A DNA stretch of 64,000 nucleotides, from contig CAVSHR010000012.1 of NCBI GenBank assembly GCA_963727625.1, forward strand, positions 597,603 through 661,602, written 5' to 3'. Positions 3,410 to 20,713 of the stretch are shown here, one piece after another. Origin of the DNA: an uncultured delta proteobacterium. Its GTDB lineage: Bacteria; Desulfobacterota; Binatia; UBA9968. The position numbers and the translations under genes were made by a program. The notes below the pieces were generated by a model. The model had not been told where the DNA came from, did not search any database, and worked only from the letters and a program-made list of their open reading frames with translations. Each line of letters opens with the position of its first letter. Within the stretch, counting starts at the first letter, position 1.

Positions 3410-4873
3410 ATGACCGAAGTTCGTTTTGTCGACACCACACTGCGCGACGGCCAACAGAGTCTCTGGGCTTACAACATGAGAACCGGCATGATGCTCCCCG
3501 TCGCCGAACTGATGGACCAGGCCGGCTTTGAAGCGATCGAGCTCGGCGGCCCGGTGGAGCTCCCGAAGTGCATCAAAGAGCTGCGTGAAGATCCCTGGGA
3601 GCGCTACCGGCTGGTCATTCCTAAATTCAAAAAGACCCCGCTACGGCTCATTCACGGCACGCGCAGCGGCTTTGCGATTTTTCCCGACGCCCTGCATCAG
3701 CTCTACGACACCTGCATGGCGAACGCCGGGGTGACGGAGGTGCGGATTTCGGACTCGTGGAATGATCCTAGCGATTGGGCGTGGCGCGTCCAACAAGCGA
3801 AAAACGCCGGCCTGAAACCGATTATCAATCTGATCTACACCGTCTCGCCGCGTCATACCGATTCATATTTTGCGCAAAAGATTCGCGACGCGAACGCCCT
3901 CGATGTCTACCGCATCATTCTTAAAGACCCCGGCGGCATCTTGACGCCCGAACGAACGAAGACGCTTGCGCCGGCAGTTCTCAAAGCCGCGGGCAACACC
4001 ACCGTCGAGTTGCATACCCACTGCACGACCGGACTCGGGACGCTCTGCTGCCTGGAGGCGATCAAGGCTGGAATAACGAATATCAACACCGCAATTCCGC
4101 CGTTGGCCGACGGCTCATCGAATCCGTCGCTATTCAACGTCGCCATGAACGCGCGCGCGCTGGGCTTCAAGACATTGATCGACGAAGCGCCGCTGCGCCG
4201 GGTCGCGAGTCATTTTACCGACTGCGCCAAGCAGGACGGTTTGCCGATCGGCAGAACTCCGGAGTACGACTACGCCCAATATGTGCATCAAATTCCCGGC
4301 GGCATGATTTCGAATCTGCGCTATCAACTGCGCCGCGTCGGCATGGAACACAAGATGGATCAGACTCTCGAAGAAGCCGCGCAAGTGAGGGCGGACTTCG
4401 GCTACCCGATTATGGTGACGCCACTGTCCCAGTTCGTCGGCAGCCAGGCGGCGATCAACGTAATCGTCGGCGAGCGCTATAAGCAAGTCACCGATCAGAC
4501 CATTGAATACGCCATGGGTATCTGGGGCAAGGAAGGCGCCGTGCTCATGGACCCCAAAGTAAAAGAAAAGATTCTCAACCGCCGGCGCGCCAAGGAAATC
4601 GCCGAGCGGCCCCATCCGACCGATTCGCTGCAAGAGCTGCGCCGCAAATACGGCGGCGCTGGAGTTAGCGACGAAGACGTGTTGCTGCGCTTTTTTTCCA
4701 GCAAGGAAGACGTCGAACGCATGCGCGCGGCCGGCCCGCCGCGCGCTTACACGACCAACGGCAATCCGCTGCTCAATCTGGTCGAGGAGCTCAGCAAACA
4801 AAATGAACGCAGCAGCGTATATATTCGGCGGCCGAATTTCTCTCTGCGATTGGAAAGACGCCGCACCGTTTGA
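3410..4873 (+). CDS. Pyruvate carboxylase subunit B / oxaloacetate decarboxylase alpha-like carboxyltransferase without biotinyl domain
   Basis: DTTLRDGQQSL, LKDPGG, LHTHCTTG, HQIPGGMISN, GYPIMVTPLSQFVG. Confidence 0.88.
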   Translation: MTEVRFVDTTLRDGQQSLWAYNMRTGMMLPVAELMDQAGFEAIELGGPVELPKCIKELREDPWERYRLVIPKFKKTPLRLIHGTRSGFAIFPDALHQLYDTCMANAGVTEVRISDSWNDPSDWAWRVQQAKNAGLKPIINLIYTVSPRHTDSYFAQKIRDANALDVYRIILKDPGGILTPERTKTLAPAVLKAAGNTTVELHTHCTTGLGTLCCLEAIKAGITNINTAIPPLADGSSNPSLFNVAMNARALGFKTLIDEAPLRRVASHFTDCAKQDGLPIGRTPEYDYAQYVHQIPGGMISNLRYQLRRVGMEHKMDQTLEEAAQVRADFGYPIMVTPLSQFVGSQAAINVIVGERYKQVTDQTIEYAMGIWGKEGAVLMDPKVKEKILNRRRAKEIAERPHPTDSLQELRRKYGGAGVSDEDVLLRFFSSKEDVERMRAAGPPRAYTTNGNPLLNLVEELSKQNERSSVYIRRPNFSLRLERRRTV

Positions 4874-4902
4874 ATGATCGCGGCGTTTTTTGGGAGGACA
4901 TC

Positions 4903-5430
4903 ATGGCACGCGTGCCCTTGATCGAAGAAGCCGACCACCCGGAGCTTGCCGATTCTATCGCCAAAATTAAGGGCGCACGCGGCGGCCGGCTCATCAATAT
5001 CTATCGTTTGATGCTGCACAGCCCGGCCCTGGCCAACGCCTGGTTCGATTTGAACCAGGCTGTGCGCTACGGCACCGAGATCGACGGCCAGAGCCGCGAG
5101 CTGGCGGTGATCCGCGTGGCGATCTTAAACAACGTCGAATATGTCCAGCGCGCCCACGGCCCCGCCTACGCGCTCAAAGAAGGCTTGACGCCCGAGCAAG
5201 TGACGGCGCTGGCAAACTGGCGCGACTCGAAGCTTTTCAGCGACCAGCAGCGCGCCCTGCTCGCTTACACCGACGCGATGACTCGGACCATCGAAGTGTC
5301 CGGTGACGTTTTCGACGAACTGCGCAAGCATTTCAGCGAACGCCAAACCGTCGAGCTCACCATGCTCATCGGTGCCTACAACATGCTGACCAGATTTTTG
5401 CAGGCCCTCGAGGTCGATCCGGAACCCTAG
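4903..5430 (+). CDS. Carboxymuconolactone decarboxylase/AhpD family protein
   Basis: MARVP start after GGAGG; RELAVIRVA, YVQRAH, FSE.Q.VEL...IGAYN. Confidence 0.85.
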   Translation: MARVPLIEEADHPELADSIAKIKGARGGRLINIYRLMLHSPALANAWFDLNQAVRYGTEIDGQSRELAVIRVAILNNVEYVQRAHGPAYALKEGLTPEQVTALANWRDSKLFSDQQRALLAYTDAMTRTIEVSGDVFDELRKHFSERQTVELTMLIGAYNMLTRFLQALEVDPEP

Positions 5431-7076: not shown

Positions 7077-7607
7077 TCAATGACGGTCGAATGGAGCCTG
7101 CGGCTCGTAGTCGTAGCGCACCAGCCACCAGTGTCCGCTGCGGCGCGCGAACATCCAGAAGTCGCGGTAGTAATGGTCGCCTCCCCACCCATGAAACTTC
7201 TGATTGATCTCCACGACCGCCGAATTATTGACAATGTAGATCCGATGGATCCGATCCTCAAAACGGATCTGTCCAATTTTACGATCGCGAAAGGCACCAA
7301 GGGCCTCGGCGCGGATGCCGGCATAATCGATCATGACTTTCGGCTTGTCCCAAGCCCGCTGTAGCGCGTCGGCAGCATAGGCCGACATGACCACGTTGAT
7401 ATCCCTCCGTTCCCAGCCCTGCCCAACAGTCATGATCAGGCGCACGATTTCTGCTTCGTCTTGGTTGCGCGAGCTGTATTGGGCGATCGGCACTCCGGCC
7501 CCATGATCAGCCCAGCTCGTTTTTGCAGCAAAGACCAGAATGAAAAACAATAAGTTGGTGGCCACCACCATTTTAAACATCTCAAACGCGAAGAGTTTCT
7601 TCATCAT
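7077..7607 (-). CDS. Exported NTF2/SnoaL-like (DUF4440) protein
   Basis: Signal-peptide-like N-terminus; EAEI...GWERRDINVVMSAYAADA; terminal beta strands ending in WWLV. Confidence 0.7.
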   Translation of the reverse strand: MMKKLFAFEMFKMVVATNLLFFILVFAAKTSWADHGAGVPIAQYSSRNQDEAEIVRLIMTVGQGWERRDINVVMSAYAADALQRAWDKPKVMIDYAGIRAEALGAFRDRKIGQIRFEDRIHRIYIVNNSAVVEINQKFHGWGGDHYYRDFWMFARRSGHWWLVRYDYEPQAPFDRH

Positions 7608-8341
7608 TTGTCCCTTTCTCTTATATCTTCTATCCCTTTGGTGCTGCAGGGCTGGATCGATGAAACCGGCGGCAACTCATGAGGTGGCAAGAAGATCGCG
7701 AGGTAACTTTCGGCTGGATCAAGCGGCATGAATTCGATCTGCCGGTAACCCACGGCCTCGAGCTCACAACGCAAAAGGGCGGGCGGGGTTCCATGATGCT
7801 GGGTCGGCCGATCGACGTCGACGATGGCAACCCGCCCAGCGGTCACAAGGGCGGGTTTCAGCCGGTAGAAGAATTCATAAGGATTTTCGATCTCGTGGTA
7901 GACGTGCGATAGGAGGGCGACATCAACGGAACCGGGCATCAACTTGGGATCATTGGGCTGTCCGAGCACCAATTTGACGCCAACCATCTCTTCCTGCTCA
8001 AGCCGCGCGGCGAGCCGTTTGAGGTAATCCGGTCTGACATCCTGCGCATATATAGTGGCTGAAGGACCCAGACGCCGCGCGAGCCGAACCGTATAATAAC
8101 CTGCGCCCGCACCGATGTCGGCGATCCTTGGGCCCGGTGCGAGGCCGAGATGGTCCATGACCCGCTCGGCCTCTCCGGTTTTGTCTCGTGTCTTCTCATC
8201 CGAATATGCCGGCGCAACAATCGCCGCCACCGGCCGATCGGGTCTCGGAAAGACCAGCCGAACCTGCAGCAGCGCATCGCCGGCCCATAACAGACCGATA
8301 GCCCCCAACGTCGGGATGAGATAGCGATGGACGCACAGCAT
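7604..8341 (-). CDS. Class I SAM-dependent methyltransferase with N-terminal signal/anchor
   Basis: IADIGAGAGYYT, SVDVALLSHVYHEI. Confidence 0.85.
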   Translation of the reverse strand: MLCVHRYLIPTLGAIGLLWAGDALLQVRLVFPRPDRPVAAIVAPAYSDEKTRDKTGEAERVMDHLGLAPGPRIADIGAGAGYYTVRLARRLGPSATIYAQDVRPDYLKRLAARLEQEEMVGVKLVLGQPNDPKLMPGSVDVALLSHVYHEIENPYEFFYRLKPALVTAGRVAIVDVDRPTQHHGTPPALLRCELEAVGYRQIEFMPLDPAESYLAIFLPPHELPPVSSIQPCSTKGIEDIRERDK

Positions 8342-8712
8342 GCTCGCTGGAAATCCTCTCTCCTAAAAAGTTCAGGTGATCCAAGTAAACTCTAAATCAC
8401 CTTTGATCTGTGCAATAGGCAAACGAAAACATCGCGCACCTACCCGACGTCGCTGTCTTCGAAAATCTATTACAAGCACCCGCGGATCAATAGCGCCTGG
8501 CTTGTGACGCGCGACTTGCTGCCTAATTCGTTTCCGGCCCATCAATCCTCCCTGCTCTAACGTCAATTAGATTCGACCTTGATCATAACTATCAATTAAC
8601 TGTTTTGGAGAGCAAAAAGTTTCCGAAATGGGCGCGGGGTCAGCATTTGTTGAAACTTTTGCATGGATAGGGTGTTTTCTATTTACGGTATCTCGGAAAG
8701 GGTCGAATCTTT

Positions 8713-9435
8713 ATGAAAGGCGCCCACCACTTATCAGAATCTCTCCTTCCCGACGCTCCAGTGCTACCTCGTTTTTTGTGTCCTAGTTCCATGGCCCAAA
8801 CTGATCGGCGCATTTCTGGATTTTTTTGTGACCTTGCTTTATAGCGCCATCAATAGCGAATTGGGAAGACCGCCCACCCTAGGGGAGAGCCCTTTGAATG
8901 TCTCCGGTCTCCATGCAGGCATCTTTCTAGTATCGCTGATTTTTGTGATTGACTGGGAGCTTGAGCGGTTCAATCTCAAAGGCGCCGGAGCGCCGTTATT
9001 TATTCTACTCACAGGCAGCCTAGGCGCTCTGAGCGCGATGTCATACAGAAGGATTGCGTATCTCTGGCGAGTGCCCGAAGGAAACATGATCGGAATGCAG
9101 TGCCTGGCCATGGCTGCTGTCTTGATTTTTCCGATGCTATGGCTGCCCCGACGCTTAATTGGCGACCGCCGCAGCGGCTGGCTCTGGATCATCGGTCTTT
9201 CCTTCTCAGCCACGGCGATGTTTGCCTACACCATCATCCATGGAAATTGATCTATTCCGCCGATTTCGATCTGATCCAGCTCTACAATATCGTGGAAGAT
9301 CCCCAGGAGAGAAGAAATCTTTGGCAAGAAAATCGCCAACTTGCGGCTGAGATGGAAAGAGAGCTGATGGGCTATCTAAAAAAAGCGGCGGGAAAATCCT
9401 ACCGGCCACTGCTTTCGGACGCTCCTGCCCGATAG
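8713..9435 (+). pseudogene. Degraded membrane-anchored sulfatase/LTA-synthase-like gene
   Basis: Hydrophobic ORF 8828-9250 joins by frameshift to a sulfatase-type C-terminus (WKLIYS...QLYNIVEDPQERRNL); catalytic core absent. Confidence 0.55.
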
Positions 9436-9637
9436 CACGACCGGTCTTCGCATCGCTTTCAGGCCTTTTGCGGGGGGTCGAAGGCATTATGTTCCGGATG
9501 TTCCGGATAGATCAAAGTAGAGACGAAAGCGCTTGAGCAAGGAACTTTAGCGGGGGGTGGAACGTTATTAGAAAAAATCGGTATCGAGAGAACGGCTAAC
9601 CTCTTACGGATAAGCCGTAATCGCAGAAAAGTATCAG

Positions 9638-11290
9638 ATGCAAGCGACTGCTAAAGCGATCGGCGACCATTCTGCAGCAGAAATCAGGCAATTGGTTCGC
9701 GACAAGTATTCTGAAGTCGCGCTCAAGCCGGGCTCAAAATACAAGTTCAGGGTCGGTCGCGAGTATGCGATCGAGCTCGGCTATCCCCCTCAAAAGGTTC
9801 AAGCGCTTCCGGAGAAATTGGCTGAGGCCTTTACCGGCGTCTCTTCGTTCATGGCCCGTTTCGAGGATTTCGCTCCAGGAGATGTCGTCCTCGAGCTTGG
9901 ATCCGGTGGAGGATTCGACAGCGCATTACTCGCCAAACGATTCGGCGCTGCGACAAAGGTCATTGGAGTCGATTTTTCTCTCGACATGATTCAAAGGGCA
10001 GCGCGATCTCTCGGCGCGCTGGAGCTTTGCCAGGTTAATTATACCCAGGCTGTGGCGGAGGAGCTTCCCGTCCGTGATAATTCAGTGGACTGGGTTGTCA
10101 GCAACGGGATCTTCAATCTCTCCCCGGAGAAGGAGAGAATCCTGTCCGAGATTCATCGGGTCCTAAAACCCAAGGGTCACGTGCTCTGTTCCGAGATCGT
10201 TCTCTATCAGGAGCCCACTCCGGAGGAGCGTCTCAATGAAGACGACTGGTTCAAGTGAATTGCCGGCGCAATGTCGGAAAAGTCTTTTCTGACCAAATTC
10301 ATCGAGGCTGGGTTCACCCGCATAGAGATCCTGGAGAATTCCGAGAATAAACGAACGCCAAACCGCAACGCCTACGTGGTTACTCTAGCCGCGCAGAAGG
10401 CGCCCGCGGCGTTACGGGCGCCTCTTGAGCAAAAAACCAAACCCGTCCTGAATCGGGAAAACGCAGCCGAAGTCTTGAAGGAATGTTGGGTTTTTCCGGT
10501 CGCGCCGGAGACCTGCAATCTGGCGTGCACCCATTGTCTTTATGGCGCTTCGCCACGATCGCGCAATCCTTACCGTGTCACGTCCGGCGAGCTGGGCGAA
10601 TTACTGGCGCAGGTAAAATCCGTCGGTGCGAAACCGCATTTTTTGTTTACCGGCGGGGAGCCGACGCTGCACTCTGAACTCTACGATTTTCTACAAACTT
10701 TTGATCGAGAGGGCTACTCGTTCCAGCTCATGACCAATGGAACTCGGATCCAGGAAGAAAGTGCCGAGCGTTTAGCGAAGCTGTCTCATCTGATCAAGGT
10801 GCAAGTATCACTGGAATCGGCGGACGCGAAAATCAACGATTCCATTTACGGCGCCGGACTGTACGGCAGGGTCCTCAAGGCAGTGAAAGTTCTCAAAGAA
10901 AAAAATGTCCCGGTGACACTGGCGGCAACAGCCATGGAGATCAACGAGCACGGTCTCTCCGCCATCGAAGAGTTGGCCGACGCCCAGGGAGTGGAATTGA
11001 AACAGATACTTTTGTACGAGCTCGGCGCAGCCAAAGAAAACGGCTTGAAACCGGCGCAGCAAATTCCAACCGACAACGGTCAAAGGGACAGAGAACTGAT
11101 GTGTGACAAAGGGGTCGCCTATTCCGAGGGAGCCTTCTACCCGTGTCCCGTGCTGGTCAAGGAGCCGCAGACGAAATTAGGCGATAGTTTAGAGCAGGCC
11201 TTGAGTCCGGAGTCACGCCGTAAAGTGACCGGGTTGCAGGAAACGCACGCTGCCTGTCAGGTTTGCCTTAAAGGCTCCACGTGAGCGTAG
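9638..11290 (+). CDS. Putative selenoprotein: ArsM-like methyltransferase fused to ArsS-like radical SAM domain (UGA at 10256-10258 read as Sec; possible second Sec at 11282-11284)
   Basis: ORFs 9638-10258 and 10271-11284 are in frame, separated only by TGA-ATT-GCC-GGC-GCA (DDWFK-U-IAGA, cf. ArsM W.GC(I/V)AGA); LELGSGGGFD SAM motif; CNLACTHC rSAM motif; C-terminus CQVCLKGST-TGA-GCG-TAG. Confidence 0.8.
10273..10293 (+). promoter_or_regulatory. Candidate bacterial SECIS hairpin for UGA 10256-10258
   Basis: GTCGGAAAA-GTC-TTTTCTGAC, 9-bp stem with one G-U pair; G-initiated loop 24 nt after the UGA. Confidence 0.55.
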
Positions 11291-11294
11291 GCAA

Positions 11295-11311
11295 GCGCTC
11301 CGTAGGAGCGC
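11295..11311 (+). promoter_or_regulatory. Candidate SECIS hairpin for UGA 11282-11284 (alternatively an intergenic stem-loop)
   Basis: GCGCTCC-GTA-GGAGCGC perfect 7-bp stem starting 10 nt after the UGA, G-initiated loop, no poly-U tail. Confidence 0.45.
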
Positions 11312-11365
11312 AAAAGAGAACGATAAAAACACATCCGGAACGGTAGGCGTTAAATCGGACAGGCA

Positions 11366-12427
11366 ATGAATTCAACCGACCCCAAGACTCGAATCGCCTA
11401 TTTCAAGACCATCGATGGCCAAAGTCGTAGCGCGATGGCGACTCTCGATCCGGTCTGCCTCTACCTCGAGGTCAGCAACCAGTGCAACCTGTTATGCAAG
11501 ACCTGTCCCATTACCTACGGCAAAGTGGAGGAACCCGCCTCGTTGAGCTTTGATCAGATCAAGCGCTTGGTCGCCCAATTCCCCACGGTCGAGCGCGTGG
11601 TGCTCCATGGTGTTGGAGAGCCGCTTCTCAATAGGGAACTGGCCAAAATTATTCTCTGGCTCAAGGGCAAGGGGATCTACGTTCTTTTCAATTCGAACGG
11701 CACATTGATCAATAAGCGCTGGCGTGAAGCGCTCGTCGGATCGGGACTCGATGAAATCCGGCTCTCCCTTGACGCAGCAACGCCGGAGACTTTCGCGCGG
11801 GTGCGCGGCAAACGGCTCTTTGCCGTTGTCGTCAGGAATATCCAAGGCCTGATGGCCCTCAAGGCAGAGACAGGACTGCGCACACCGCTCGTTTCACTCT
11901 GGCTGACGGGGTTGAGAGAGACTCTGAAGGAGCTCTCGGATTTCGTCCGGTTGGGCCATTCTCTGGGGATCGACCGGGTATACCTCCAACGGCTAGTTTA
12001 TTGGGACGGCAACGGCAATGATCGGCTGGCCCGTCCAGAGCAATCTCTGTTCAATTCCCTGCGAGAAGAAGGCGATCAGGTGATCAAGTCGGCGGAGGAA
12101 TTGGCCCGTTCGCTGGGGATCTCTTTTGAAGCATCCGGAGCAACCACTCCTTCGACTAGCCTTGTGGGTGAAAACTTCGACCAACCCTGGTCAGCCTGCA
12201 TGCGTCCCTGGACACTCATGTACATTAGCGCCCGGGGAAGCGCATTTCCCTGTTGCATTGCCCCTTTCTCGACGGCAGATCTAAGCCATCTCTCTCTCGG
12301 GAACGCGTTCACACAGGATCTGGCCTCCATATGGAATGGAAAGCGTTATCAAGAATTCCGCCGCCGGCTCCTGAGCGCTGAACCGCCTGAATGCTGCAAA
12401 GGTTGTGGCGCCTGTTGGAGTTTGTGA
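11366..12427 (+). CDS. Radical SAM / SPASM-domain protein
   Basis: CNLLCKTC, LHGVGEPLL, C-terminal CMRPW...G.AFPCC...LGN...IWNG...CCKGC. Confidence 0.92.
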   Translation: MNSTDPKTRIAYFKTIDGQSRSAMATLDPVCLYLEVSNQCNLLCKTCPITYGKVEEPASLSFDQIKRLVAQFPTVERVVLHGVGEPLLNRELAKIILWLKGKGIYVLFNSNGTLINKRWREALVGSGLDEIRLSLDAATPETFARVRGKRLFAVVVRNIQGLMALKAETGLRTPLVSLWLTGLRETLKELSDFVRLGHSLGIDRVYLQRLVYWDGNGNDRLARPEQSLFNSLREEGDQVIKSAEELARSLGISFEASGATTPSTSLVGENFDQPWSACMRPWTLMYISARGSAFPCCIAPFSTADLSHLSLGNAFTQDLASIWNGKRYQEFRRRLLSAEPPECCKGCGACWSL

Positions 12428-12431
12428 TCGC

Positions 12432-13166
12432 ATGAAGATCGAAAGCGGCGGCAAGAACAAAAGTCGAGCTCTGGTGGTCGTTGCCAAAGCGCCGTTACAG
12501 GGTCTTGTCAAAACGCGGCTTTATTCCTACCTCAGTCCTGTAGACGCCGCCGGCCTCTACGAGTGTTTGCTCGGCGATATCGTCTCCAAGTTGGAGAGCT
12601 ACGAAAAGAGCGAATTTTGGCTTGCCTTTGCGCCGGGAGGTGAAGACTATTTCCGCCGAAATTACTCGGCGATGAGACTGCTCGCTCAGCGCGGCAAAGA
12701 TCTCGGCGAGCGGCTCCATCACGTTTTTGTGGATCTCTTCCGCAGGGGTTACAGCGAAGTCGTCATCGCCGATAGCGACAGTCCCACGGTGCCGCTTTCG
12801 TCTATCGATCAAGCCTATCAACAACTCAACGAACAAGAATGTGATCTGGTCCTGGGACCATCGGACGACGGCGGTTATTACCTCATAGGCCTCAAGCGTG
12901 CCACGGAACGGATTTTTTACGATATCCCGTGGAGTACCCATAGAGTGCTCGATACCACCTTTAAGAGGGCGGCTGAGCTGGGGTTAAGCGCGGGGCTTCT
13001 CCCTCCTGCCTATGACATCGACATAGAGGATGACCTCAGGAGACTGTGGAATGATTTTTTGGCTCTCAAGCACCTCCGGGCGCTAGCCCCGAGAACCTAT
13101 GACTACCTGAACAATGTCCTCGGCGCCGGATCTTTGCAGGTTCGTGCTTTAACCGAAATCGATTAG
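12432..13166 (+). CDS. TIGR04282/DUF2064-like glycosyltransferase (CofC-like fold, rSAM/selenodomain-associated)
   Basis: AKAP..G.VKTRL, Q.G.DLGERL, SDSPT, LVLGPSDDGGYYLIG, IPWST, YDIDIEDDL. Confidence 0.88.
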   Translation: MKIESGGKNKSRALVVVAKAPLQGLVKTRLYSYLSPVDAAGLYECLLGDIVSKLESYEKSEFWLAFAPGGEDYFRRNYSAMRLLAQRGKDLGERLHHVFVDLFRRGYSEVVIADSDSPTVPLSSIDQAYQQLNEQECDLVLGPSDDGGYYLIGLKRATERIFYDIPWSTHRVLDTTFKRAAELGLSAGLLPPAYDIDIEDDLRRLWNDFLALKHLRALAPRTYDYLNNVLGAGSLQVRALTEID

Positions 13167-13176
13167 GAGGCTCAGA

Positions 13177-13716
13177 ATGGCCGCAGCCGTTAGTTCCGTC
13201 GGGATTCGAGACCTGGCTCTTTGGGCTGGTCTTTATCGAATTGCGCTCGGGATTATGTGGCTGCAAATGGCCTTACAAAAAGCGCCCTGGATCATGGGGC
13301 CCGAGGGAAGGCCCTACGGTTGGCTCTACGGTTACATCTGGAAGGAAATCAATAATCCGACCTTTACTTTTTACACCGAGTTTCTGAAAAATATAGTGCT
13401 TCCCAATTTTTACTATTTTGGTTTGTTGACCTTCGTCGTTGAGATCGCAATCGGGGTGTCACTGGTGCTGGGTTTTTTAGTTCCTCTGATCGGCGGTCTC
13501 GGCGGCGCCCTCATGCAAACCAATATCATGCTCGGCAGTTACAGCATTCCGAGCGAGTGGTTTTGGCTTTGGCCCATGCTGATCGGCAGTCACGTCATCT
13601 TCATGATGGGTAGAGCCGGCCGCCGTCTCGGATTGGATGGCCTCCTTTCAAGCTCTCTTGAGCACTCCCCTGATACAGGAGGCAAGTTGAGACGATTCTT
13701 GACCTATGTCGTGTAG
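13177..13716 (+). CDS. DoxX / TQO small subunit DoxD-like membrane protein
   Basis: RIALG..WL....QK, EIAIGVSL.LG, RAGRRLGLDG; strong RBS. Confidence 0.75.
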   Translation: MAAAVSSVGIRDLALWAGLYRIALGIMWLQMALQKAPWIMGPEGRPYGWLYGYIWKEINNPTFTFYTEFLKNIVLPNFYYFGLLTFVVEIAIGVSLVLGFLVPLIGGLGGALMQTNIMLGSYSIPSEWFWLWPMLIGSHVIFMMGRAGRRLGLDGLLSSSLEHSPDTGGKLRRFLTYVV

Positions 13717-13745
13717 TTGCATTCGCGCAGTCGGGCTATAGCAGG

Positions 13746-15251
13746 ATGATCCGATTCATTACCAGAAACAAAGTCTGGGTATTAGGACTGCTCTCCGCAG
13801 CCATCTACGGCATGAATTTGCGCATGGCTGACGTGCTGGTCCGCCTTGAGATCCTCGATTCTGCACCGGACCCCATAGCGTCTTACTTGATCCAAATCGC
13901 GCCTCTGAGTCTAATCTATTTTCTGGCCGTGTGGATGACGGCACGTGCGCAATACGCCAAGAAGACTTTGACGCCCATTATCCTGTTTGCGCTGTTGTTC
14001 CGACTGCCTCTGATCCTTTTAGAGCCCGCCCTCTCCAGTGACGTCTATCGCTACCTTTGGGAAGGGAAAGTGCAAATTGTTGCCGGAATGAATCCCTACG
14101 TCGTGCCGCCGGCGGACGACCGCCTTGCCTCTCTACGGGATCAAGCGATTTATCCTCACATCAATCGCAAGGAGGCGCCGACGATCTATCCTGCAGGCGC
14201 GCAGCTCCTTTTCGCCCTACTACACAAGGCCGGCGTCGAAAGCCCCCAGGCATTCAAAGCTCTGTCCCTTGTTGCCGATGCTCTATCGCTGCTTCTCCTG
14301 CTTTTAATCCTTAAGCGACTCCATTTGCCGCTTGACCGCGTTATCATCTACGCGTGGAATCCTCTCCTTATCTATGAGTTCTTTTGGAGCGGCCACCTGG
14401 AAAGCTTCATGTTGCCTCCCCTGCTGGGCTTTATCTATTTTACCCTTCGGGGTTGGGTGCTAGCTGCCGGTGTCGCCCTCGGCCTCGCGACAGCGATTAA
14501 ACTAGTCCCCCTGTTTCTTCTGGCAACCGTGCCTCCGGGCAAGAGGATTAGGACAGTAATCCCTTTTGTCTTTGTTCTGGGGCTTGCTTATATCTTTTAC
14601 GCCGCAGCGGGGACGAGGATCCTGGGCTTTCTTCCAACCTATTTCTCTGACCCATACGAGATTTTCAATCTCGGCATCGTCCAACTAGGTTTGTTACGGG
14701 TGGTGCAGTCATTTTCATTTCCCGTCTCTTGGGTTCGTAACATTCTTCTCGCCCTCCTGCTTGCGATCCTAATGATGATCTCACGGCGCGCCCCCAATTC
14801 CCCTGCGGACATTATCGGGAGAAGCTACGCGACCTTTAGCGCCTATCTCTTGCTCATCTATCCCGCTTTTCATCCCTGGTACTTTTGTGCGCTTGTGCCC
14901 TTGTTATGCTTCGTCCCGTCGCGAGCTTGGATCTGCTTCTCCTTGCTGCTCCCTCTGTCTTACTTTAAATACCTCACGCCAGACGGAACGATGCCATTGT
15001 GGATTACGCTCGCAGAATTTGCCCCTTTGTATCTGCTCCTGGTCCGGGAACACGGCCGGTTTCCAATTTGGCTAAGAAAGCGCCAGGCGTCCAGCGGCGC
15101 TATAAACGAGAAATGCGACGGCAAAGAAATTCCAAGCCGCGAACTAAAAGAGCGCCTCCTCTTAGACGATCAGACCGGAGAATTACTGCCTTGCATGTCG
15201 GCGATAACCGCCTTAGCCACAGTCAGGCGAAGCCGTAAAAGAAGGGAATAG
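13746..15251 (+). CDS. GT-C fold membrane glycosyltransferase (GT87/DUF2029-like)
   Basis: LSSDVYRYLWEG...NPY..PP, TIYP, YAWNPL, GHLES, HPWY. Confidence 0.85.
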   Translation: MIRFITRNKVWVLGLLSAAIYGMNLRMADVLVRLEILDSAPDPIASYLIQIAPLSLIYFLAVWMTARAQYAKKTLTPIILFALLFRLPLILLEPALSSDVYRYLWEGKVQIVAGMNPYVVPPADDRLASLRDQAIYPHINRKEAPTIYPAGAQLLFALLHKAGVESPQAFKALSLVADALSLLLLLLILKRLHLPLDRVIIYAWNPLLIYEFFWSGHLESFMLPPLLGFIYFTLRGWVLAAGVALGLATAIKLVPLFLLATVPPGKRIRTVIPFVFVLGLAYIFYAAAGTRILGFLPTYFSDPYEIFNLGIVQLGLLRVVQSFSFPVSWVRNILLALLLAILMMISRRAPNSPADIIGRSYATFSAYLLLIYPAFHPWYFCALVPLLCFVPSRAWICFSLLLPLSYFKYLTPDGTMPLWITLAEFAPLYLLLVREHGRFPIWLRKRQASSGAINEKCDGKEIPSRELKERLLLDDQTGELLPCMSAITALATVRRSRKRRE

Positions 15252-15255
15252 CTCA

Positions 15256-16833
15256 GTGGCAACCGGCATTTTAGAATCAATTTTTTACTACAGCCTCGGC
15301 GCGCTCTACCTTCTGTGCCTGAGCGGGCTCTTTCTCTACGGCACCAACTGCTATGTTCTGCTCCTGCTCTTTCGCCGAAACCGCAGCAAAGGCGAGAAGG
15401 AGTATCGCGACGCTCTCGATAACTTTGAGAACTCCCCCTGGAAAAACGACCTCCCTCAGATCACGGTACAACTGCCGATCTACAACGAGCGCTATGTTGT
15501 CGCTCGGCTCATGAAAGCTGTCAGCGCCCTGGATTACCCGCGCGACCGATTGGAGATTCAGCTCCTCGACGACTCCACCGATGATTCCGTGGAGATCATC
15601 AGCCGGCTGGTCGCGGATTATCGGAAAGAGGGCTTCCCTATCGTCCATCTCCAGCGAGCAACCCGACAGGGCTTTAAAGCAGGCGCGCTTAGGGAAGGCA
15701 TGGAGACAGCGCGTGGAGAATTTTTCGCCATTTTCGATGCCGACTTCGTTCCCCCGCCTGACTTTCTGCGCAAAACCATTCCTTACTTCTTGAATGCCAA
15801 AGTCGGTATGGTGCAGGCGCGGTGGAGTCACATCAATCCCAACTATTCGCTTCTGACACGCGCGCAGTCGATTGGAATCGACTCGCATTTTTCCATCGAG
15901 CAAGGCGCCCGAGCCTGGTCGGGCCTTTTTCTCAACTTCAACGGCACCGCAGGTGTATGGAGACGGCAAGCCATCGTTGAAGCTGGAGGCTGGCAAGCCG
16001 ATACTCTCACCGAGGACATGGACCTAAGCTATCGAGCTCAACTAGCGGGTTGGCGGATGAAGTATCTCTTGGAAGTGGCGTGCCCGGCAGAACTGCCGGT
16101 GCAGGTGGCTGCATTTAAATCGCAACAGTTTCGTTGGGCAAAAGGCTCCATCCAAACGGCACGCAAAATAATGCCCGCTCTGCTTAGGGCGCCCTGCTCA
16201 AATTTCGCCAAGTGGCAGGCCATGCTCCACATGACTCACTACGTCATCCATCCGCTGATGCTGGTCACTATTTTGCTTTCCTATCCGGTAATCCTTATCC
16301 AGGATACTGAGTCAAGCCCCTGGCTGTTGGCCGGCGCTTTCATTTTATTTCTATCGGCGACGTTGGCCCCCTCGACTTTGTATCTTGCGTCGCAAAGATT
16401 TCTCTACCCGGACTGGCGCACCCGGATACGTTGGATCTCGCTTATGACACTGATCGGCACGGGCCTCTCGTTAAACAACGCGCGAGCGATTTTGGAAGGG
16501 CTGTTCCTTTCCGGCGGAAACTTCGTGCGCACTCCGAAGTTCGGCGTCTTTCCTGGCGACGATTTGCGCGGACGGATAATAGGCTATGGTCTCAAGATGG
16601 GTATGCTGCCATGGCTCGAGTTGGCTATCGGAGTTTATGCGCTATTTGCACTGACTCAAGCCATTAAAACTCCGGGCATACTGATCAGCCCATTCCTGCT
16701 GATGTACACGTGTGGTTTTTTCTATATCGCGCTCAAGGGAATCGGCGAATCGCTGGACTGGAAGATCGGCAAGTACCGACCCCCACCACCGCCCACCGCA
16801 TCCACTGTGATCGAGCAACACGATGGCACCTGA
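15256..16833 (+). CDS. Processive-type GT2 glycosyltransferase (cellulose-synthase-like)
   Basis: VQLPIYNE, DDSTD, GFKAGAL, FDADF, TEDMDLSYR, QQFRW, FVRTPK. Confidence 0.92.
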   Translation: MATGILESIFYYSLGALYLLCLSGLFLYGTNCYVLLLLFRRNRSKGEKEYRDALDNFENSPWKNDLPQITVQLPIYNERYVVARLMKAVSALDYPRDRLEIQLLDDSTDDSVEIISRLVADYRKEGFPIVHLQRATRQGFKAGALREGMETARGEFFAIFDADFVPPPDFLRKTIPYFLNAKVGMVQARWSHINPNYSLLTRAQSIGIDSHFSIEQGARAWSGLFLNFNGTAGVWRRQAIVEAGGWQADTLTEDMDLSYRAQLAGWRMKYLLEVACPAELPVQVAAFKSQQFRWAKGSIQTARKIMPALLRAPCSNFAKWQAMLHMTHYVIHPLMLVTILLSYPVILIQDTESSPWLLAGAFILFLSATLAPSTLYLASQRFLYPDWRTRIRWISLMTLIGTGLSLNNARAILEGLFLSGGNFVRTPKFGVFPGDDLRGRIIGYGLKMGMLPWLELAIGVYALFALTQAIKTPGILISPFLLMYTCGFFYIALKGIGESLDWKIGKYRPPPPPTASTVIEQHDGT

Positions 16834-16848
16834 GAAGACTCCTTCGAT

Positions 16849-18489
16849 ATGAGATTCTTAAAAATGTCCTTCCGCGCCAACTGCCTGATACGAGCGGCGG
16901 CCCTTCTGTTTCTGCTTGCGACCCTGACGCCGCTCGCTGTGGTCCTGGGGCAGAAACTTTTGCCAAGCCCGTGGCCGACCTACCGCGGCGATCTCAAGCG
17001 CACAGGGCGAAGCGATTATAAAGGTCCAACGACCAATCAGCTCCGCTGGGTTTTCTCGACTGGGCTCGCCGAGAAGCGTGGAGGCATCGAGACAGATCCC
17101 GTCATCGGTCCTGACGGAACCGTTTACATCGGCGCCAACAACGGAATTATTTACGCGTTGAACCCTGAAGACGGCTCGATACGCTGGGTTTTTCCCACGG
17201 CTTTTGACACCTTCGCGATCTATTCCAGTCCGAGCGTCGACCAGCAGGGACTCGTCTACTTCGGCGCCAAAGATGGCAACGTTTATGCGCTGAGGGCGCC
17301 AAAACGCGGAATCATGGGGGAATTGGTCTGGTCTCTCAACCTCGGCACTACAATACAGACTTCACCGGCTTTTACACCGGACGGAACTCTCGTGATTGGT
17401 GCCGACGACTGGGCTTACTATGGGATCGCACCTCCCCGGGACGGGACTGGCCCCAGGATAAAGTGGCGCTTCCAAACGCAGGGTACATTGATTACGTCGC
17501 CGGCCGTCGACTCTGACGGGACGATTTTCGTGGCGTCGATGGATGGAAAAATTTATGCTCTGGAGCCGCCAAAGGATGCGAGCCAGCAGCCGGTCAAAGT
17601 CCGCTGGAGCTTTTCTTCGGGCGCGCGCGACGATCGGGGAGGCTTTGAAAACGCGCCCGCCGTCGACAAGCAAGGGACTCTTTACATGGGCGGAAATGAC
17701 GGAATTTTTTACGCTCTGGACAGCAAGACAGGCAAAGTCAAGTGGACGTTCGATGGCGTCGCGCGTTCGGGTTATCGAACCTACGCGATCTTTTCTTCTG
17801 CCGCGATCGGCCCGGATCGGACAGTATACTTTGGTGGGAAGAACGGCGATCTTTACGTAATTCGCCAGCAGCAGGCTTTCTTTCGCTCAGGCCCGCAAGT
17901 CCTCTGGCGGTACAAACTGGGAGCAGGGATTCAATCTTCTCCGCTCCTCGCGGCTGACGGAACCGTTTATCTTGGTGACGAGCGTGGCACCTTGCACGCC
18001 ATCAGACCGCCTGCTTCCGGAGAAGCGGGAACAACCTTGTGGAAATTTTCCACAAAGGGAACATTGATCTCTTCCCCTGCTCTTGCTGCTGACGGAACGC
18101 TCTACGAAGGTTCCATGGACGGGAAACTCTATGCCTTTAAGTCTGGGGCCGCAAAGCCCGGCGCCGAGGGTCCTTTCTCAGGAACCTGGTATGGAACCTA
18201 TGAAAGCCAGCTAATCTCTGGGCAGGTGAGAGCTGTCCTTCGACAAGAAGGCACACAGGTTTGGTCCGCTTGGTTCCTTGAGGGAGTAGGGCGCGGAGAG
18301 GGACAGGCAACTGCCCTGGACAACCGTCTGATATTTTCACTGCCCATAAAAACGGCCCGCTGTCGGGGAACTGTTCGCGGCGAGGGTCAAAGGGACGGGA
18401 ATCGAATCCGCGTCGATGTCCGGATTGATCAATGCGGAGGAAAAATCGTAGGCGGTAAGCTCACGATGCGCAATAGCTTGAAAAGGTAA
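16849..18489 (+). CDS. Exported PQQ-like/BamB-like beta-propeller repeat protein
   Basis: Signal peptide; about 8 repeats of W.F.T...I.SSPA...DGT.Y.G..DG..YA; extra C-terminal beta domain (FSGTWYGTY). Confidence 0.88.
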   Translation: MRFLKMSFRANCLIRAAALLFLLATLTPLAVVLGQKLLPSPWPTYRGDLKRTGRSDYKGPTTNQLRWVFSTGLAEKRGGIETDPVIGPDGTVYIGANNGIIYALNPEDGSIRWVFPTAFDTFAIYSSPSVDQQGLVYFGAKDGNVYALRAPKRGIMGELVWSLNLGTTIQTSPAFTPDGTLVIGADDWAYYGIAPPRDGTGPRIKWRFQTQGTLITSPAVDSDGTIFVASMDGKIYALEPPKDASQQPVKVRWSFSSGARDDRGGFENAPAVDKQGTLYMGGNDGIFYALDSKTGKVKWTFDGVARSGYRTYAIFSSAAIGPDRTVYFGGKNGDLYVIRQQQAFFRSGPQVLWRYKLGAGIQSSPLLAADGTVYLGDERGTLHAIRPPASGEAGTTLWKFSTKGTLISSPALAADGTLYEGSMDGKLYAFKSGAAKPGAEGPFSGTWYGTYESQLISGQVRAVLRQEGTQVWSAWFLEGVGRGEGQATALDNRLIFSLPIKTARCRGTVRGEGQRDGNRIRVDVRIDQCGGKIVGGKLTMRNSLKR

Positions 18490-18533
18490 ACTGTGGGTCA
18501 TGCTCGCTGAACATAGACACCACGACCTTCCCA

Positions 18534-19235
18534 ATGAAAATTTCACTCATCATTCCCGCTCTTGACGAGGAAGAACCTCTGCCTGACGTGTTGGCATCGG
18601 TTCCGCCGGGCGCAGTTGATGAAATTATCGTGGTGGATAACGGGAGCACGGACGGCACCGCGGCTGTCGCTTGTCGTGCTGGAGCACTGGTGGTCATAGA
18701 ACCGAGAAAGGGTTATGGCGCGGCCTGCTGGTCCGGTTTTAAGGCCGCCGAAGACGCTGATATTTTGGTGTTTATGGACGGCGATGGAAGTTTCCAGGCA
18801 GGCGAGATCCCTCGACTCACCGAGCCTATCGCGAGTGGCACTGCGGATCTGGTGCTAGGGAGCCGAGCCCTAGGGGCCACAGATGCAGGGGCAATTCCTC
18901 TCCACGCTCGTTTGGGGAACAGCCTCGTTGCCACTATTATCGGTTTTATCTCGGCAACTCGAATCTCGGACCTGGGACCTTTCCGGGCCATCGGTTGCAA
19001 GAGTTTAGAAAACCTAAATATGCAGGAGCGCACGCACGGCTGGCCCTGTGAGATGATCATTAAGTCAGCCAAGTTCGGATACCGGGTCCTCGAGGTTCCT
19101 GTAACTTATCGCCCCCGCACCGGCGGAAAATCAAAAGTCTCCGGCACAATCGCCGGGAGTATCAGTGCTGCCATTGCTATGCTCAGAGTGACCCTCCGGT
19201 GGTTATTTTGGAATCCAAACCGCAACATATCTTAA
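18534..19235 (+). CDS. GT2 glycosyltransferase (polyprenol-phosphate glycosyltransferase/DPM1-like)
   Basis: IIPALDEE, VVDNGSTDGT, GYGAAC, FMDGDGS, DLGPFRAI, EVPVTYR.R.GG.SK. Confidence 0.92.
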   Translation: MKISLIIPALDEEEPLPDVLASVPPGAVDEIIVVDNGSTDGTAAVACRAGALVVIEPRKGYGAACWSGFKAAEDADILVFMDGDGSFQAGEIPRLTEPIASGTADLVLGSRALGATDAGAIPLHARLGNSLVATIIGFISATRISDLGPFRAIGCKSLENLNMQERTHGWPCEMIIKSAKFGYRVLEVPVTYRPRTGGKSKVSGTIAGSISAAIAMLRVTLRWLFWNPNRNIS

Positions 19236-19630
19236 TAAGAAGTTAGGAGTTCCTCACTCTGTTGCGTCAACACAAGCAAAATTACTGAAGGACGAATGGA
19301 TAGAAATTCGGCTTTGGGCACTGTAGACCGAAGAAGAATGGTGCGCTTTTTGATTTTCTCGTCTCCGGGTTGTCCAGGGATTGAACTTTACGGATAGGTT
19401 TTATCCTTGCTGCGTCCTATCCTCACTACTCTCGCCCGATCGTTCTGCGCTCCCATCCAGGTTAATACCTATCGGATATGTCACTTTGGATGCCTACACT
19501 TGGTCGCCCGCTTGATTGGTAATCAAGTGGCCAAACCAAGTACCCGTGGGAATTGGGGAATACGATCTCAGCGACCGGCCGGTCGCCGCCACAAGCTTTG
19601 CGAGCCGCGTGGTTTGTCACTCACTCCGAA

Positions 19631-20713
19631 TCACTCCAACCCATAAAACACCCGGGGGTTATCCTCGACGATCTTCCTGTGCTGCTCGGCGGAAATGCCG
19701 CCGCTGTTTTTCAACGTCGTCAGCGCATCCAGTTCCGTCGATGAGTCGGCGTGGCCGTAGTCGGTGCCGATCATCAGGGTGTTTTCACCCATGCAGCTTT
19801 TGATCAAATAGGGCACGTCGTCGCCGATCTGGCAAGTGACGAAGATGCCGCAGCGTTCGAGTAAATCGTCAGGCAGCCGGCTATCGACCTTGTCCAATCG
19901 CCGGCGCAGCTCGTAAACGACCCACGGCACCCATGTCGCTGCGGTCTCGATGAAGCCGAAGCGGAGTTTGGGAAATAGCTTTGGAATGCCGCAATTGATG
20001 ATGCGGAATAACGCGCCGACGTTGAAGATCCGATACTGGTTGAAAAAGTCCCGGCTGCCGTCCGGGTTGACCATCAGGTCGACGGCCGCGGCGCTGCCGT
20101 TGGATTGGTGTAGTCCAATGCAAAAATCCAGCTTCTGCGCCTGCTCGTAAAGCGGGAAGAAATAGGGATCGGAAATCTGCCGCGCACCTTCCAGCGGACG
20201 CATGAAAATGCCGCAGCCGCCGTGCTCCTTGGCGAATTTTAATTGATCTAGCGCATCGGGCATGCACAGCAAAGGCAGCGTTGCCATCCAGCGCAGCCGG
20301 CCGTTGCTTTCTTTCCAAACATCCGCCAGCCAACGGTTGTACGCGCCGCACAAGGCCACGTCGGTATCGGCCCGCTCGGTGCACTGATCGAGGAAGATGC
20401 TCGGGTAAAGAACTTGGATGTCAATTCCCAGTTCGTCCATGTGCTTGATGCGGCCCGACACGTCGGCGAGATCGCGCGCCGCCATCGTTGTGCTCATGTC
20501 GCGTCCGAACTCGGCCGATTTCTTGTCCACGTCCTCCTTGCTGAAGGTAAAACGGAACAGGCCGCGGATCTTCCCGTCGATCACCCAATGGGCCCTTTGG
20601 GTCTCGCCTTCGGGCTTGAACAGGAGGGGGCGAAACTTCTCTTCCGACGGCGTCAGATAATCCCAAGTATGCGGGCTTTCGACCACATGAGCATCAGCGT
20701 CTATCCATCCCAT
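19631..20713 (-). CDS. Amidohydrolase_2 family protein
   Basis: IDADAHVVE, MDELGIDIQVLYPS, AYNRWLA, FPKLRFGFIE, GTDYGH. Confidence 0.9.
   Translation of the reverse strand: MGWIDADAHVVESPHTWDYLTPSEEKFRPLLFKPEGETQRAHWVIDGKIRGLFRFTFSKEDVDKKSAEFGRDMSTTMAARDLADVSGRIKHMDELGIDIQVLYPSIFLDQCTERADTDVALCGAYNRWLADVWKESNGRLRWMATLPLLCMPDALDQLKFAKEHGGCGIFMRPLEGARQISDPYFFPLYEQAQKLDFCIGLHQSNGSAAAVDLMVNPDGSRDFFNQYRIFNVGALFRIINCGIPKLFPKLRFGFIETAATWVPWVVYELRRRLDKVDSRLPDDLLERCGIFVTCQIGDDVPYLIKSCMGENTLMIGTDYGHADSSTELDALTTLKNSGGISAEQHRKIVEDNPRVFYGLE

Follow-up and report, generated by a model that had tools for sequence, protein, structure and literature searches.

A fused methyltransferase–radical SAM gene with two in-frame TGA codons, predicted to encode a double selenoprotein

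The stretch analyzed here (the window) comprises 64,000 nucleotides of contig CAVSHR010000012.1, and coordinates below are window positions unless another contig is named. Positions 9638–11290 of the forward strand very probably hold one gene, of 550 codons followed by TAG, for a fused protein in which 2 in-frame TGA codons encode selenocysteine (Sec, U) as U207 and U549. A list of open reading frames (ORFs) under translation table 11 shows this gene as 2 pieces: an ORF at 9638–10258 (206 aa), with its TGA stop at 10256–10258, and an ORF at 10271–11284 (337 aa) in the same frame, with its TGA stop at 11282–11284, after which come a GCG codon and a TAG at 11288–11290. Pfam recognizes class I methyltransferase families in the 206-aa piece and the radical S-adenosylmethionine (SAM) family PF04055 (Radical_SAM) in the 337-aa piece. 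When TGA is translated as U, the region reads ...DDWFK-U207-IAGAMSEKSF... and, at its far end, ...HAACQVCLKGST-U549-A-stop, so that the 550-residue frame finishes in CQVCLKGST-U-A-stop. An earlier examination of this DNA, made without database searches (the sequence-only reading), had proposed that the 2 ORFs are one frame interrupted by TGA, and its frame proved accurate to the base. Comparison of relatives at each site, together with the genome's Sec machinery, supports its further claim of a single protein of about 550 aa with one Sec per domain. An intact protein would require the ribosome to read both UGA207 and UGA549 as selenocysteine.

Relatives were gathered from 60 related genomes, from a 5.8-billion-protein index, and from metagenome and genome contigs scanned at the DNA level, and an exhaustive HMMER search over 1.84 billion representatives supplied distant homologs. 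The query for the DNA scans was an alignment of the radical SAM half, which carries no bias on the codon at either TGA site, and the evidence comes mostly from metagenome contigs together with 9 contigs of metagenome-assembled genomes (MAGs). Full-length orthologs with both TGA codons were found at 13 further loci plus locus L023. Among the 60 relatives, the gene is present only in G035, G043, and G045: the first, a same-family relative, has the full fusion at 70% identity, and the other two have a stand-alone radical SAM protein with an identical GST-U-A end. The G035 genome is unpublished and contributes a single entry to each TGA count and to 3 alignments; without it the counts given below become 26/26 for the first site and 21/22 for the second. 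Of the 31 genomes in the genus, only the window's own was found to have the fusion, and a search with the radical SAM half across 400 other sampled genomes from the whole phylum returned none at E ≤ 1e-40. The family is rare among species representatives, and the named records that carry the gene are MAGs labeled Candidatus Binatia, Deltaproteobacteria, Candidatus Acidiferrales, and Candidatus Tectomicrobia. A fused form with the same domain order and Cys at both sites was absent from the 88 matches of a search for proteins of 302–963 aa in which the best 7999 candidates were scored.

At the first site, the codon for Sec207 (10256–10258), every covered locus has TGA, 27 of 27 in all: the window, L023, and 25 collected loci, which together give 22 distinct sequences. 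Protein identities to the window are 54–100%. The 4 codons that follow, encoding I-A-G-A, vary almost only synonymously (ATT/ATC, GCC/GCG/GCT/GCA, GGC/GGG/GGT, and GCN), the sole replacement being a single Val (GTC once). In this U-I-A-G motif, U207 aligns with the Cys of the ArsM motif GC(I/V/L)AGA, and Cys occupies the column in the ArsM-type proteins P0065 and P0067–P0082 and in the solved structure of CrArsM (5evj). An AlphaFold2 model of the 550 residues (mean predicted local distance difference test (pLDDT) 86.5, predicted template modeling score (pTM) 0.56) places strands 226–236 and 245–254 in the first domain, and ArsM structures align as far as about residue 257, in line with the sequence-only proposal that some 45 residues past the TGA still belong to the methyltransferase fold. 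Because these strands and the ArsM alignment both run past TGA207, a 206-aa product would be an incomplete fold. This pattern of conservation identifies the first TGA as a predicted sense codon.

Each UGA is followed by a conserved predicted hairpin whose loop begins with G, at the spacing of a bacterial selenocysteine insertion sequence (SECIS); the range used by bSECISearch places the loop G 16–37 nt after the UGA. The sequence-only reading had pointed to a G-first hairpin after each TGA, and both recur across the related loci. Hairpin 1 (10273–10293), which lies within the coding sequence, has a 9-bp stem and a GUC loop, replaced by GGG in a second clade, with the loop G 24 nt past the UGA. 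Its pairing holds in 99.5% of 198 cells over 22 distinct sequences, compared with 30–57% in slid-partner controls, and includes one compensatory change from A-U to G-C. Synonymous sites within the stem are frozen (TCA, AAG, TTT, and CTG), while the flanking codons vary. On the window alone its folding energy is no better than that of shuffled sequence (z −0.4 over 65 nt), and its support comes from conservation across loci. A scan of 9500–11500 against Rfam, with E up to 10, gave 2 chance-level matches and no SECIS family.

The second site, the codon for the penultimate residue Sec549 (11282–11284), is followed by the GCG codon for Ala550 and the TAG stop (11285–11290). All 64 protein clusters of the radical SAM half (52–100% identity) end one residue before this TGA, with last residues GST in 55, GNT and GSS in 3 each, and GAT, GGT, and GSA in 1 each; 45 of them begin just past the first TGA, and gene callers do split the protein as the sequence-only reading had anticipated. 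At the DNA level, TGA-GCN-stop is found in 22 of the 23 loci that reach the site. The Ala550 codon in those 22 loci is GCG in 16, GCT in 3, GCC in 2, and GCA in 1, without replacement, and the final stop after it is TAG in 13, TAA in 8, and TGA in 1. Ordinary stop codons provide a control: TGA, TAA, and TAG end 8, 6, and 5 of 19 canonical ArsS genes of relatives, 5, 9, and 0 of 14 neighboring radical SAM/SPASM genes, 5, 1, and 4 of 10 neighboring TIGR04282 genes, and 1, 7, and 5 of 13 copies of the neighbor orf179. TGA-GCN-stop is what a translated codon with the real stop behind it would look like. Distant homologs from the HMMER search (26–31% identity) align to the very end of the protein, and all 9 have Cys in the U549 column, in a motif ACxxC-x3-GxxC that lies one to a few residues from the C terminus; homologs with Cys and homologs with a kept TGA, which the sequence-only reading had named as a check, are accordingly seen at both sites. 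That reading held the first Sec to be much better supported than the second, an assessment these data revise: in the comparative record, support for the second predicted Sec roughly equals that for the first. A further homolog, P0097 (272 aa, 31% identical, rich in K, N, and I), ends ...CKICLSGIT at the same place as the Sec family and is probably another Sec-bearing lineage cut at a TGA.

Hairpin 2 (11295–11311), in the 3' untranslated region, is GCGCUCC-GUA-GGAGCGC, a 7-bp G+C stem with a GUA loop; it begins 4 bases past the true stop, and its loop G lies 17 nt past UGA549. A covariance model (R1), built from 10 in-register sequences, finds this hairpin exactly once in each of 22 loci. In the structural alignment, which leans towards the model structure, 92.7% of positions are paired and none of 500 shuffles reaches the score. 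Three pairs have changed on both sides: the outermost is G-C in 9 sequences, A-U in 4, and C-G in 3, and an inner pair is U-A in 13 and C-G in 4.

The genome itself carries the machinery for selenocysteine, with selA (607 bits), selB (397 bits), selD (377 bits), and tRNA-Sec (76.7 bits) all above their family cut-offs, which answers the check for selA, selB, selC, and selD named in the sequence-only reading. The genes selA, selB, and selD adjoin in a row on contig C5 (715112–719466), selD has one in-frame TGA of its own, and tRNA-Sec lies about 50 kb away on the same contig (768830–768920).

Several observations weigh against a fused double selenoprotein. The support for both Sec residues is wholly comparative, and the loci are kin, falling into roughly 3 clades (DDWFK-U, EDWFT-U, and stand-alone), so that the counts overstate independence; those at the second site, which cover the 2 deep fusion clades and the stand-alone clade, are likewise not independent. 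Covariation in hairpin 1 is slight, with a single compensatory pair, and falls within a conserved peptide. The statistics for hairpin 2 rest on a structure-fitted alignment, and on a plain MAFFT alignment the hairpin is indistinguishable from shuffles (76.3% paired, 88/500); the signal is lost there because stem and loop lengths differ between the clades. One ortholog, at locus L054 (3755–3791), ends KGRVLGEH-stop without the second Sec, perhaps through genuine loss and perhaps through an error of assembly; the same locus lacks the radical SAM/SPASM gene between the fusion and TIGR04282. The structural model is silent on a contact between U207 and U549 because its pTM is 0.56 and the tail (residues 548–550) has pLDDT below 50.

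Two other explanations of the TGA codons would reduce the number of selenocysteines. If the locus held 2 separate genes, a truncated methyltransferase ending at the TGA and a radical SAM protein starting at ATG 10271, then 45 of the 64 clusters in public gene calls would begin at the right position, and stand-alone radical SAM forms (G043, G045, P0038, P0063, and P0064) would be its natural counterparts. Those forms, however, begin about 60 residues later and lack the methyltransferase tail, and the methyltransferase fold needs residues past the TGA. The supposed restart codon at 10271 is ATG in 10, TTG in 6, CTG in 5, and CTA in 1 of the 22 distinct sequences, and since CTG or CTA stands there in 6 of the 22 the restart is not conserved; frame and TGA are kept in all 27 loci, and relatives align a Cys with the TGA. 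We regard 2 separate genes as very improbable. Slightly less so, and still improbable, is that only the first TGA encodes Sec, the second being a true stop, the protein ending ...KGST, and hairpin 2 serving as a transcript-end or stability element. Read-through at this TGA, 2 codons from another stop, adds just U-A, a G+C-rich hairpin directly after a stop resembles a terminator stem, and both the unfitted alignment and the motif-less L054 speak for such an ending. Yet the hairpin has no U tract and a terminator scan gives no call. All 22 loci with the motif have TGA, against 1/13 to 5/10 for ordinary genes at the same loci; the next codon is always Ala, in all 4 synonymous forms, and then always a stop. 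Cys fills the column in 9 of 9 distant homologs and, as judged by eye, in ArsS.

In the fused double selenoprotein that we favor, the N-terminal domain (residues 1–255, 9638–10402) matches Pfam Methyltransf_31/25/11 and would have the ArsM fold, since its model aligns with CmArsM (4fr0) at Z 25.7 and a root-mean-square deviation of 1.9 over 209 residues, and with CrArsM (5evj) at Z 24.1. A linker of residues 256–270 (10403–10447), with low confidence (pLDDT below 50) at 258–267, joins it to the second domain. The best NCBIfam matches of the methyltransferase half are NF041537 (189 bits), NF047649 (184 bits), NF041536 (170 bits), and NF008823 (167 bits); the ArsM-type matches span residues 8–270 only and all lie far below their cut-offs, which for NF008823 (ArsM) is 263 bits. 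Among the As(III)-binding Cys positions of ArsM, only that of GC(I/V)AGA is kept, as Sec207.

The same genome also encodes a stand-alone ArsM-like paralog of 300 aa on contig C9 (about 271584–272486, forward strand), with a predicted Sec in DLWAA-U-IGGA and likewise without the other ArsM Cys positions (FAGVGNP and SNGVLNL). Similar ArsM-like genes with a single TGA were recorded for at least 9 related genomes (34–40% identity). By sequence, the methyltransferase half of the fusion and the contig C9 paralog look like a Sec-only subfamily of ArsM-like enzymes.

The second domain (residues 271–550, 10448–11287) has PF04055 and structural matches of the SPASM/twitch class. The CxxxCxxC motif noticed by the sequence-only reading corresponds to C293, C297, and C300 (10514–10537), the site of the radical SAM [4Fe-4S] cluster, and is invariant in 20/20 sequences. 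Its closest structural neighbors are SkfB (6efn, Z 23.7, residues 272–546) and BlsE (7vob, Z 22.3, residues 278–550), with SuiB (5v1s) and anSMEcpe (4k38, Z 21.7) completing a set at Z 21.7–23.7 that aligns as far as residues 545–550. The seven-cysteine SPASM motif is described as CX9-15GX4C ... CX2CX5CX3C...C (PMC5715301). In the fusion, C489-X8-G-X4-C503 (11102–11146), invariant in the alignments, is the CX9-15GX4C hairpin motif, and C540-X2-C543-X5-U549 (11255–11284) corresponds to the first 3 positions of CX2CX5CX3C, with U549 as the third. CX3CX2C, CX9-15GX4C, and CX2CX5C are therefore all represented, as is the fold of the whole half in the 4 SPASM enzymes above; the fusion differs from them in that its motif stops at the third position, the predicted Sec, and the chain ends before CX3C...C, so that the last 2 of the 7 Cys are absent. 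PF13186 (SPASM) has no match in the radical SAM half and matches the downstream neighbor gene. NCBIfam returns generic matches only (mycofactocin, AhbD, and NirJ types at about 74 bits, TrsS at 56), and a scan with the last 96 residues alone gave no meaningful match. On its motifs and fold, the C-terminal half is a predicted radical SAM enzyme of the SPASM/twitch class with a shortened auxiliary-cluster motif, C-X13-C...C-X2-C-X5-U.

A variant of this radical SAM protein was also observed in P0064 and P0090 (364 aa, 52–54% identical), in which a TusA-like N-terminal domain replaces the methyltransferase. Their last residues are GST or GSS, as would be expected from truncation at a TGA; PF01206 is recorded for P0064, and the variant matches the model of the Rv1681 family from position 2.

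We compared the fusion with the ArsM and ArsS pair, which is present in the same genome. The true ArsS of this genome scores 447 bits on TIGR04167 and is encoded on another contig, where it adjoins an all-Cys canonical ArsM and a second TIGR04282. This ArsS and those of 18 relatives end in MC-X15-C ... HCxxC-X7 with GSSC-GG, in agreement with the sequence-only reading. Compared by eye, the motif order is common to ArsS and the radical SAM half, with the Cys of GSSC where the fusion has GST-U. Both systems share a methyltransferase followed by a radical SAM protein (the domain order of the fusion is the ArsM-then-ArsS gene order of its own genome), linkage to TIGR04282, and, by eye, the pattern MC-X13/15-C...CX2C...GS(S/T)(C/U). 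They differ in that the 2 proteins are separate there and fused here, that ArsS has CX2CX7C against CX2CX5U in the fusion, and that 3 ArsM Cys positions are absent from the methyltransferase half. The neighborhood also resembles that of ArsS, with an ArsM-like domain fused on and TIGR04282 in 17 of 20 related loci. In G035, G043, and G045, TIGR04167 found no match, against 46 matched genomes among 61; replacement of ArsS could be the explanation, a lead only from a sample of 3 genomes, 2 of them congeneric, that are 81–95% complete. TIGR04167 is itself listed as a GxxU selenoprotein in a 2026 review (PMC13188914).

The nearest precedents are 3 families that the same review attributes to Haft & Tolstoy 2025: NF047649 (methyltransferase/UXPK-star), NF041536 (ArsM/DUF2284), and NF041537 (ArsM/AhpD) (PMC13188914). 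Like the fusion, they have an ArsM-like domain with Sec in UxxG and a second Sec towards the C terminus, and their "star" type offers a precedent for Sec that precedes the stop by 1–3 residues. The fusion scores 184, 170, and 189 bits on them against cut-offs of 460, 575, and 510 and falls outside all 3. Their second part is a UXPK tail, DUF2284, or AhpD, whereas here it is a radical SAM domain with a predicted Sec in a SPASM-type Cys motif.

Fusions of a radical SAM protein other than ArsS with an ArsM-type methyltransferase in one chain also occur in reverse order, in P0065, P0066, and 7 of the 150 best radical SAM relatives (664–1020 aa). These have the opposite domain order and no TGA, the ArsM part of P0065 keeps its Cys positions, and their radical SAM part is only 30% identical to the one described here. 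P0099 and P0102, the only 2 that match C..C.{3,9}G..C, have the full CX2CX5CX3C SPASM motif, a hint at a different clade.

Taking the fused two-Sec identity together with a generic two-step SAM chemistry, we consider this combined reading likely. The protein would carry one small substrate, bound by selenolates, through 2 SAM-dependent steps. At somewhat under even chances, it would be a Sec-dependent fused analog of the ArsM and ArsS pair that works as follows. A soft metalloid, most likely methylated As(III), would bind Sec207 and be methylated with SAM in the ArsM-like site. It would next be transferred to Sec549, or shared between the two residues; Sec549 would sit next to the auxiliary cluster on the flexible end of the chain. 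The 5'-deoxyadenosyl radical generated at the radical SAM cluster would add to the metalloid, as in ArsS, which adenosylates dimethylarsenite (DMAs(III)) to 5'-deoxy-5'-dimethylarsinoyl-adenosine (DDMAA) (PMC13598754). The product would be handed to the co-operonic TIGR04282 protein and membrane glycosyltransferases.

That the substrate is a methylated arsenic species, in an organometalloid sugar pathway analogous to that of ArsM and ArsS, is possible, though we put it at somewhat under even chances. Loss of the other ArsM Cys residues fits methylated As(III), because one chalcogen ligand is enough for it. A more specific proposal, which we hold only tentatively and think on balance unlikely, is that this protein is the first representative of a Sec-dependent alternative to ArsM plus ArsS in which one chain does the work of both. 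It would capture a metalloid and relay it between 2 selenolates, the first in a pared-down ArsM site and the second on a mobile tail at an auxiliary Fe-S ligand position of the SPASM/twitch domain, so that the metalloid is methylated and a C-As (or C-Se) bond is formed by radical chemistry; the operon would put the resulting sugar on envelope glycoconjugates, and the system would replace the canonical pathway in genomes without ArsS.

About as likely as a methylated arsenic species is that the fused double selenoprotein acts outside arsenic chemistry, on a Se, Te, or S species or in the maturation of a cofactor or envelope glycan, with the Sec residues as redox groups or auxiliary-cluster ligands; this too falls a little short of an even chance. 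Several comparisons point that way or count against arsenic. Three of the 4 ArsM Cys positions are missing, with FTGVSS in place of FGCGNP and SNGIFNL in place of SNCVINL; the methyltransferase half lacks the N-terminal Cys pair of ArsM and falls below every ArsM cut-off. The radical SAM half reaches 44.2 bits on TIGR04167 (ArsS) against a cut-off of 300, over the core only, and BLASTP against the genome's own ArsS likewise aligns the core only (132 columns, 29%). An hhalign comparison with ArsS (99.05%, E 2e-18, 224 columns, 19% identity) runs through the MC...YxC hairpin and ends before CX2C, and is weak evidence of kinship in that any SPASM/twitch pair would score high. In the sequence-only description of the enzyme as ArsM-like and ArsS-like, the ArsM fold stands, the C-terminal Cys pattern resembles that of ArsS by eye, and membership in NF008823 and TIGR04167 does not hold. 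The genome already carries a canonical ArsM–ArsS–TIGR04282 set. The closest Cys homologs of the radical SAM half resemble the uncharacterized Rv1681 family (103–122 bits, cut-off 380), a TusA-like domain can stand in place of the methyltransferase, and the partner radical SAM/SPASM protein resembles metalloenzyme maturases (TIGR04317, 122 bits, and TIGR04311, 111 bits, both below cut-off). Set against this, TIGR04282 travels with the fusion at a score above cut-off and is otherwise tied to ArsS clusters, the GS(S/T)(C/U) C terminus is, by eye, common to the fusion and ArsS, and the 3 relatives with the radical SAM gene gave no ArsS match. Nor is a small (precursor-)peptide gene conserved beside the operon in 20 loci, orf8828 being absent from the other loci.

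Several elements of this protein are, by the sources cited here, already known kinds: ArsM-like selenoproteins, ArsM fusions with a second Sec domain, Sec near the stop, and radical SAM proteins with a C-terminal GxxU. The Sec-containing radical SAM lineage, its fusion with an ArsM-like domain, and the operon are absent from NCBIfam release 20 and from the table of the 2026 review (PMC13188914). A literature search returned no description of the fusion, and a prior mention in Haft & Tolstoy 2025 (mSystems) or its supplements is possible. In soil bacteria, public annotation splits the gene into a truncated methyltransferase and a "radical SAM protein", which leaves a whole family of predicted two-Sec enzymes invisible in protein databases. 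With the fusion, the few known ArsM-based double selenoproteins would gain a member whose partner domain is radical SAM, and TIGR04167 would be joined by a second radical SAM lineage with C-terminal GxxU. Were Sec549 to lie in or beside the auxiliary [4Fe-4S] site of a radical SAM enzyme, this would be unusual in itself and would offer a natural test of the role of selenium next to radical SAM iron-sulfur chemistry. If the functional proposal is true, the operon would represent a second route to organo-metalloid sugars.

The surrounding genes are ordered alike in 20 related loci: the fusion comes first, followed by radical SAM/SPASM, TIGR04282, DoxD/DoxX-like, GT87/MptA_B-like, and GT2 genes. 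As far as the contigs extend, this order is kept even where the fusion is only 54% identical, and one clade has TIGR04282 upstream instead. In the window all of these are on the forward strand. The partner radical SAM/SPASM protein (353 aa, 11366–12427; PF04055 and PF13186) immediately follows the fusion in 17 of 20 loci. TIGR04282 ("arsenosugar biosynthesis glycosyltransferase"; 12405–13166), likewise found in 17 of 20 loci, scores 173.2 bits against a cut-off of 134. Next come a small DoxD/DoxX-like membrane protein (13177–13716; weak Pfam DoxX, language-model neighbors at 0.96) and a GT87/MptA_B-like membrane glycosyltransferase (13746–15251; weak Pfam GT87, language-model neighbors at 0.99), both syntenic, and a 525-aa GT2 glycosyltransferase (15256–16833) that is syntenic wherever the loci reach. 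Frequent neighbors of the fusion are a SnoaL-like protein and a second class I methyltransferase assigned by Pfam; the latter lies at 7604–8341 on the reverse strand of the window and adjoins the fusion in 8 related loci in varying orientation.

Some minor features of the neighborhood were also recorded. The partner radical SAM/SPASM gene ends in a plain TGA stop without a conserved extension. The TIGR04282 gene begins with GTG at 12405 and overlaps the end of the radical SAM/SPASM gene by 23 nt (12405–12427), which suggests translational coupling. Over 7500–20000, which includes the operon, G+C is 0.53–0.56, compared with 0.57–0.61 on both sides; acquisition as an island would fit both this low G+C and the presence of the fusion in a single genome of the genus. 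An AhpD-like protein at 4870–5430 (forward strand) matches NF053654 ("YciW-related (seleno)protein") at 64 bits, against a cut-off of 310, and the peroxidase-related family TIGR01926 at 50 bits, against a cut-off of 82.

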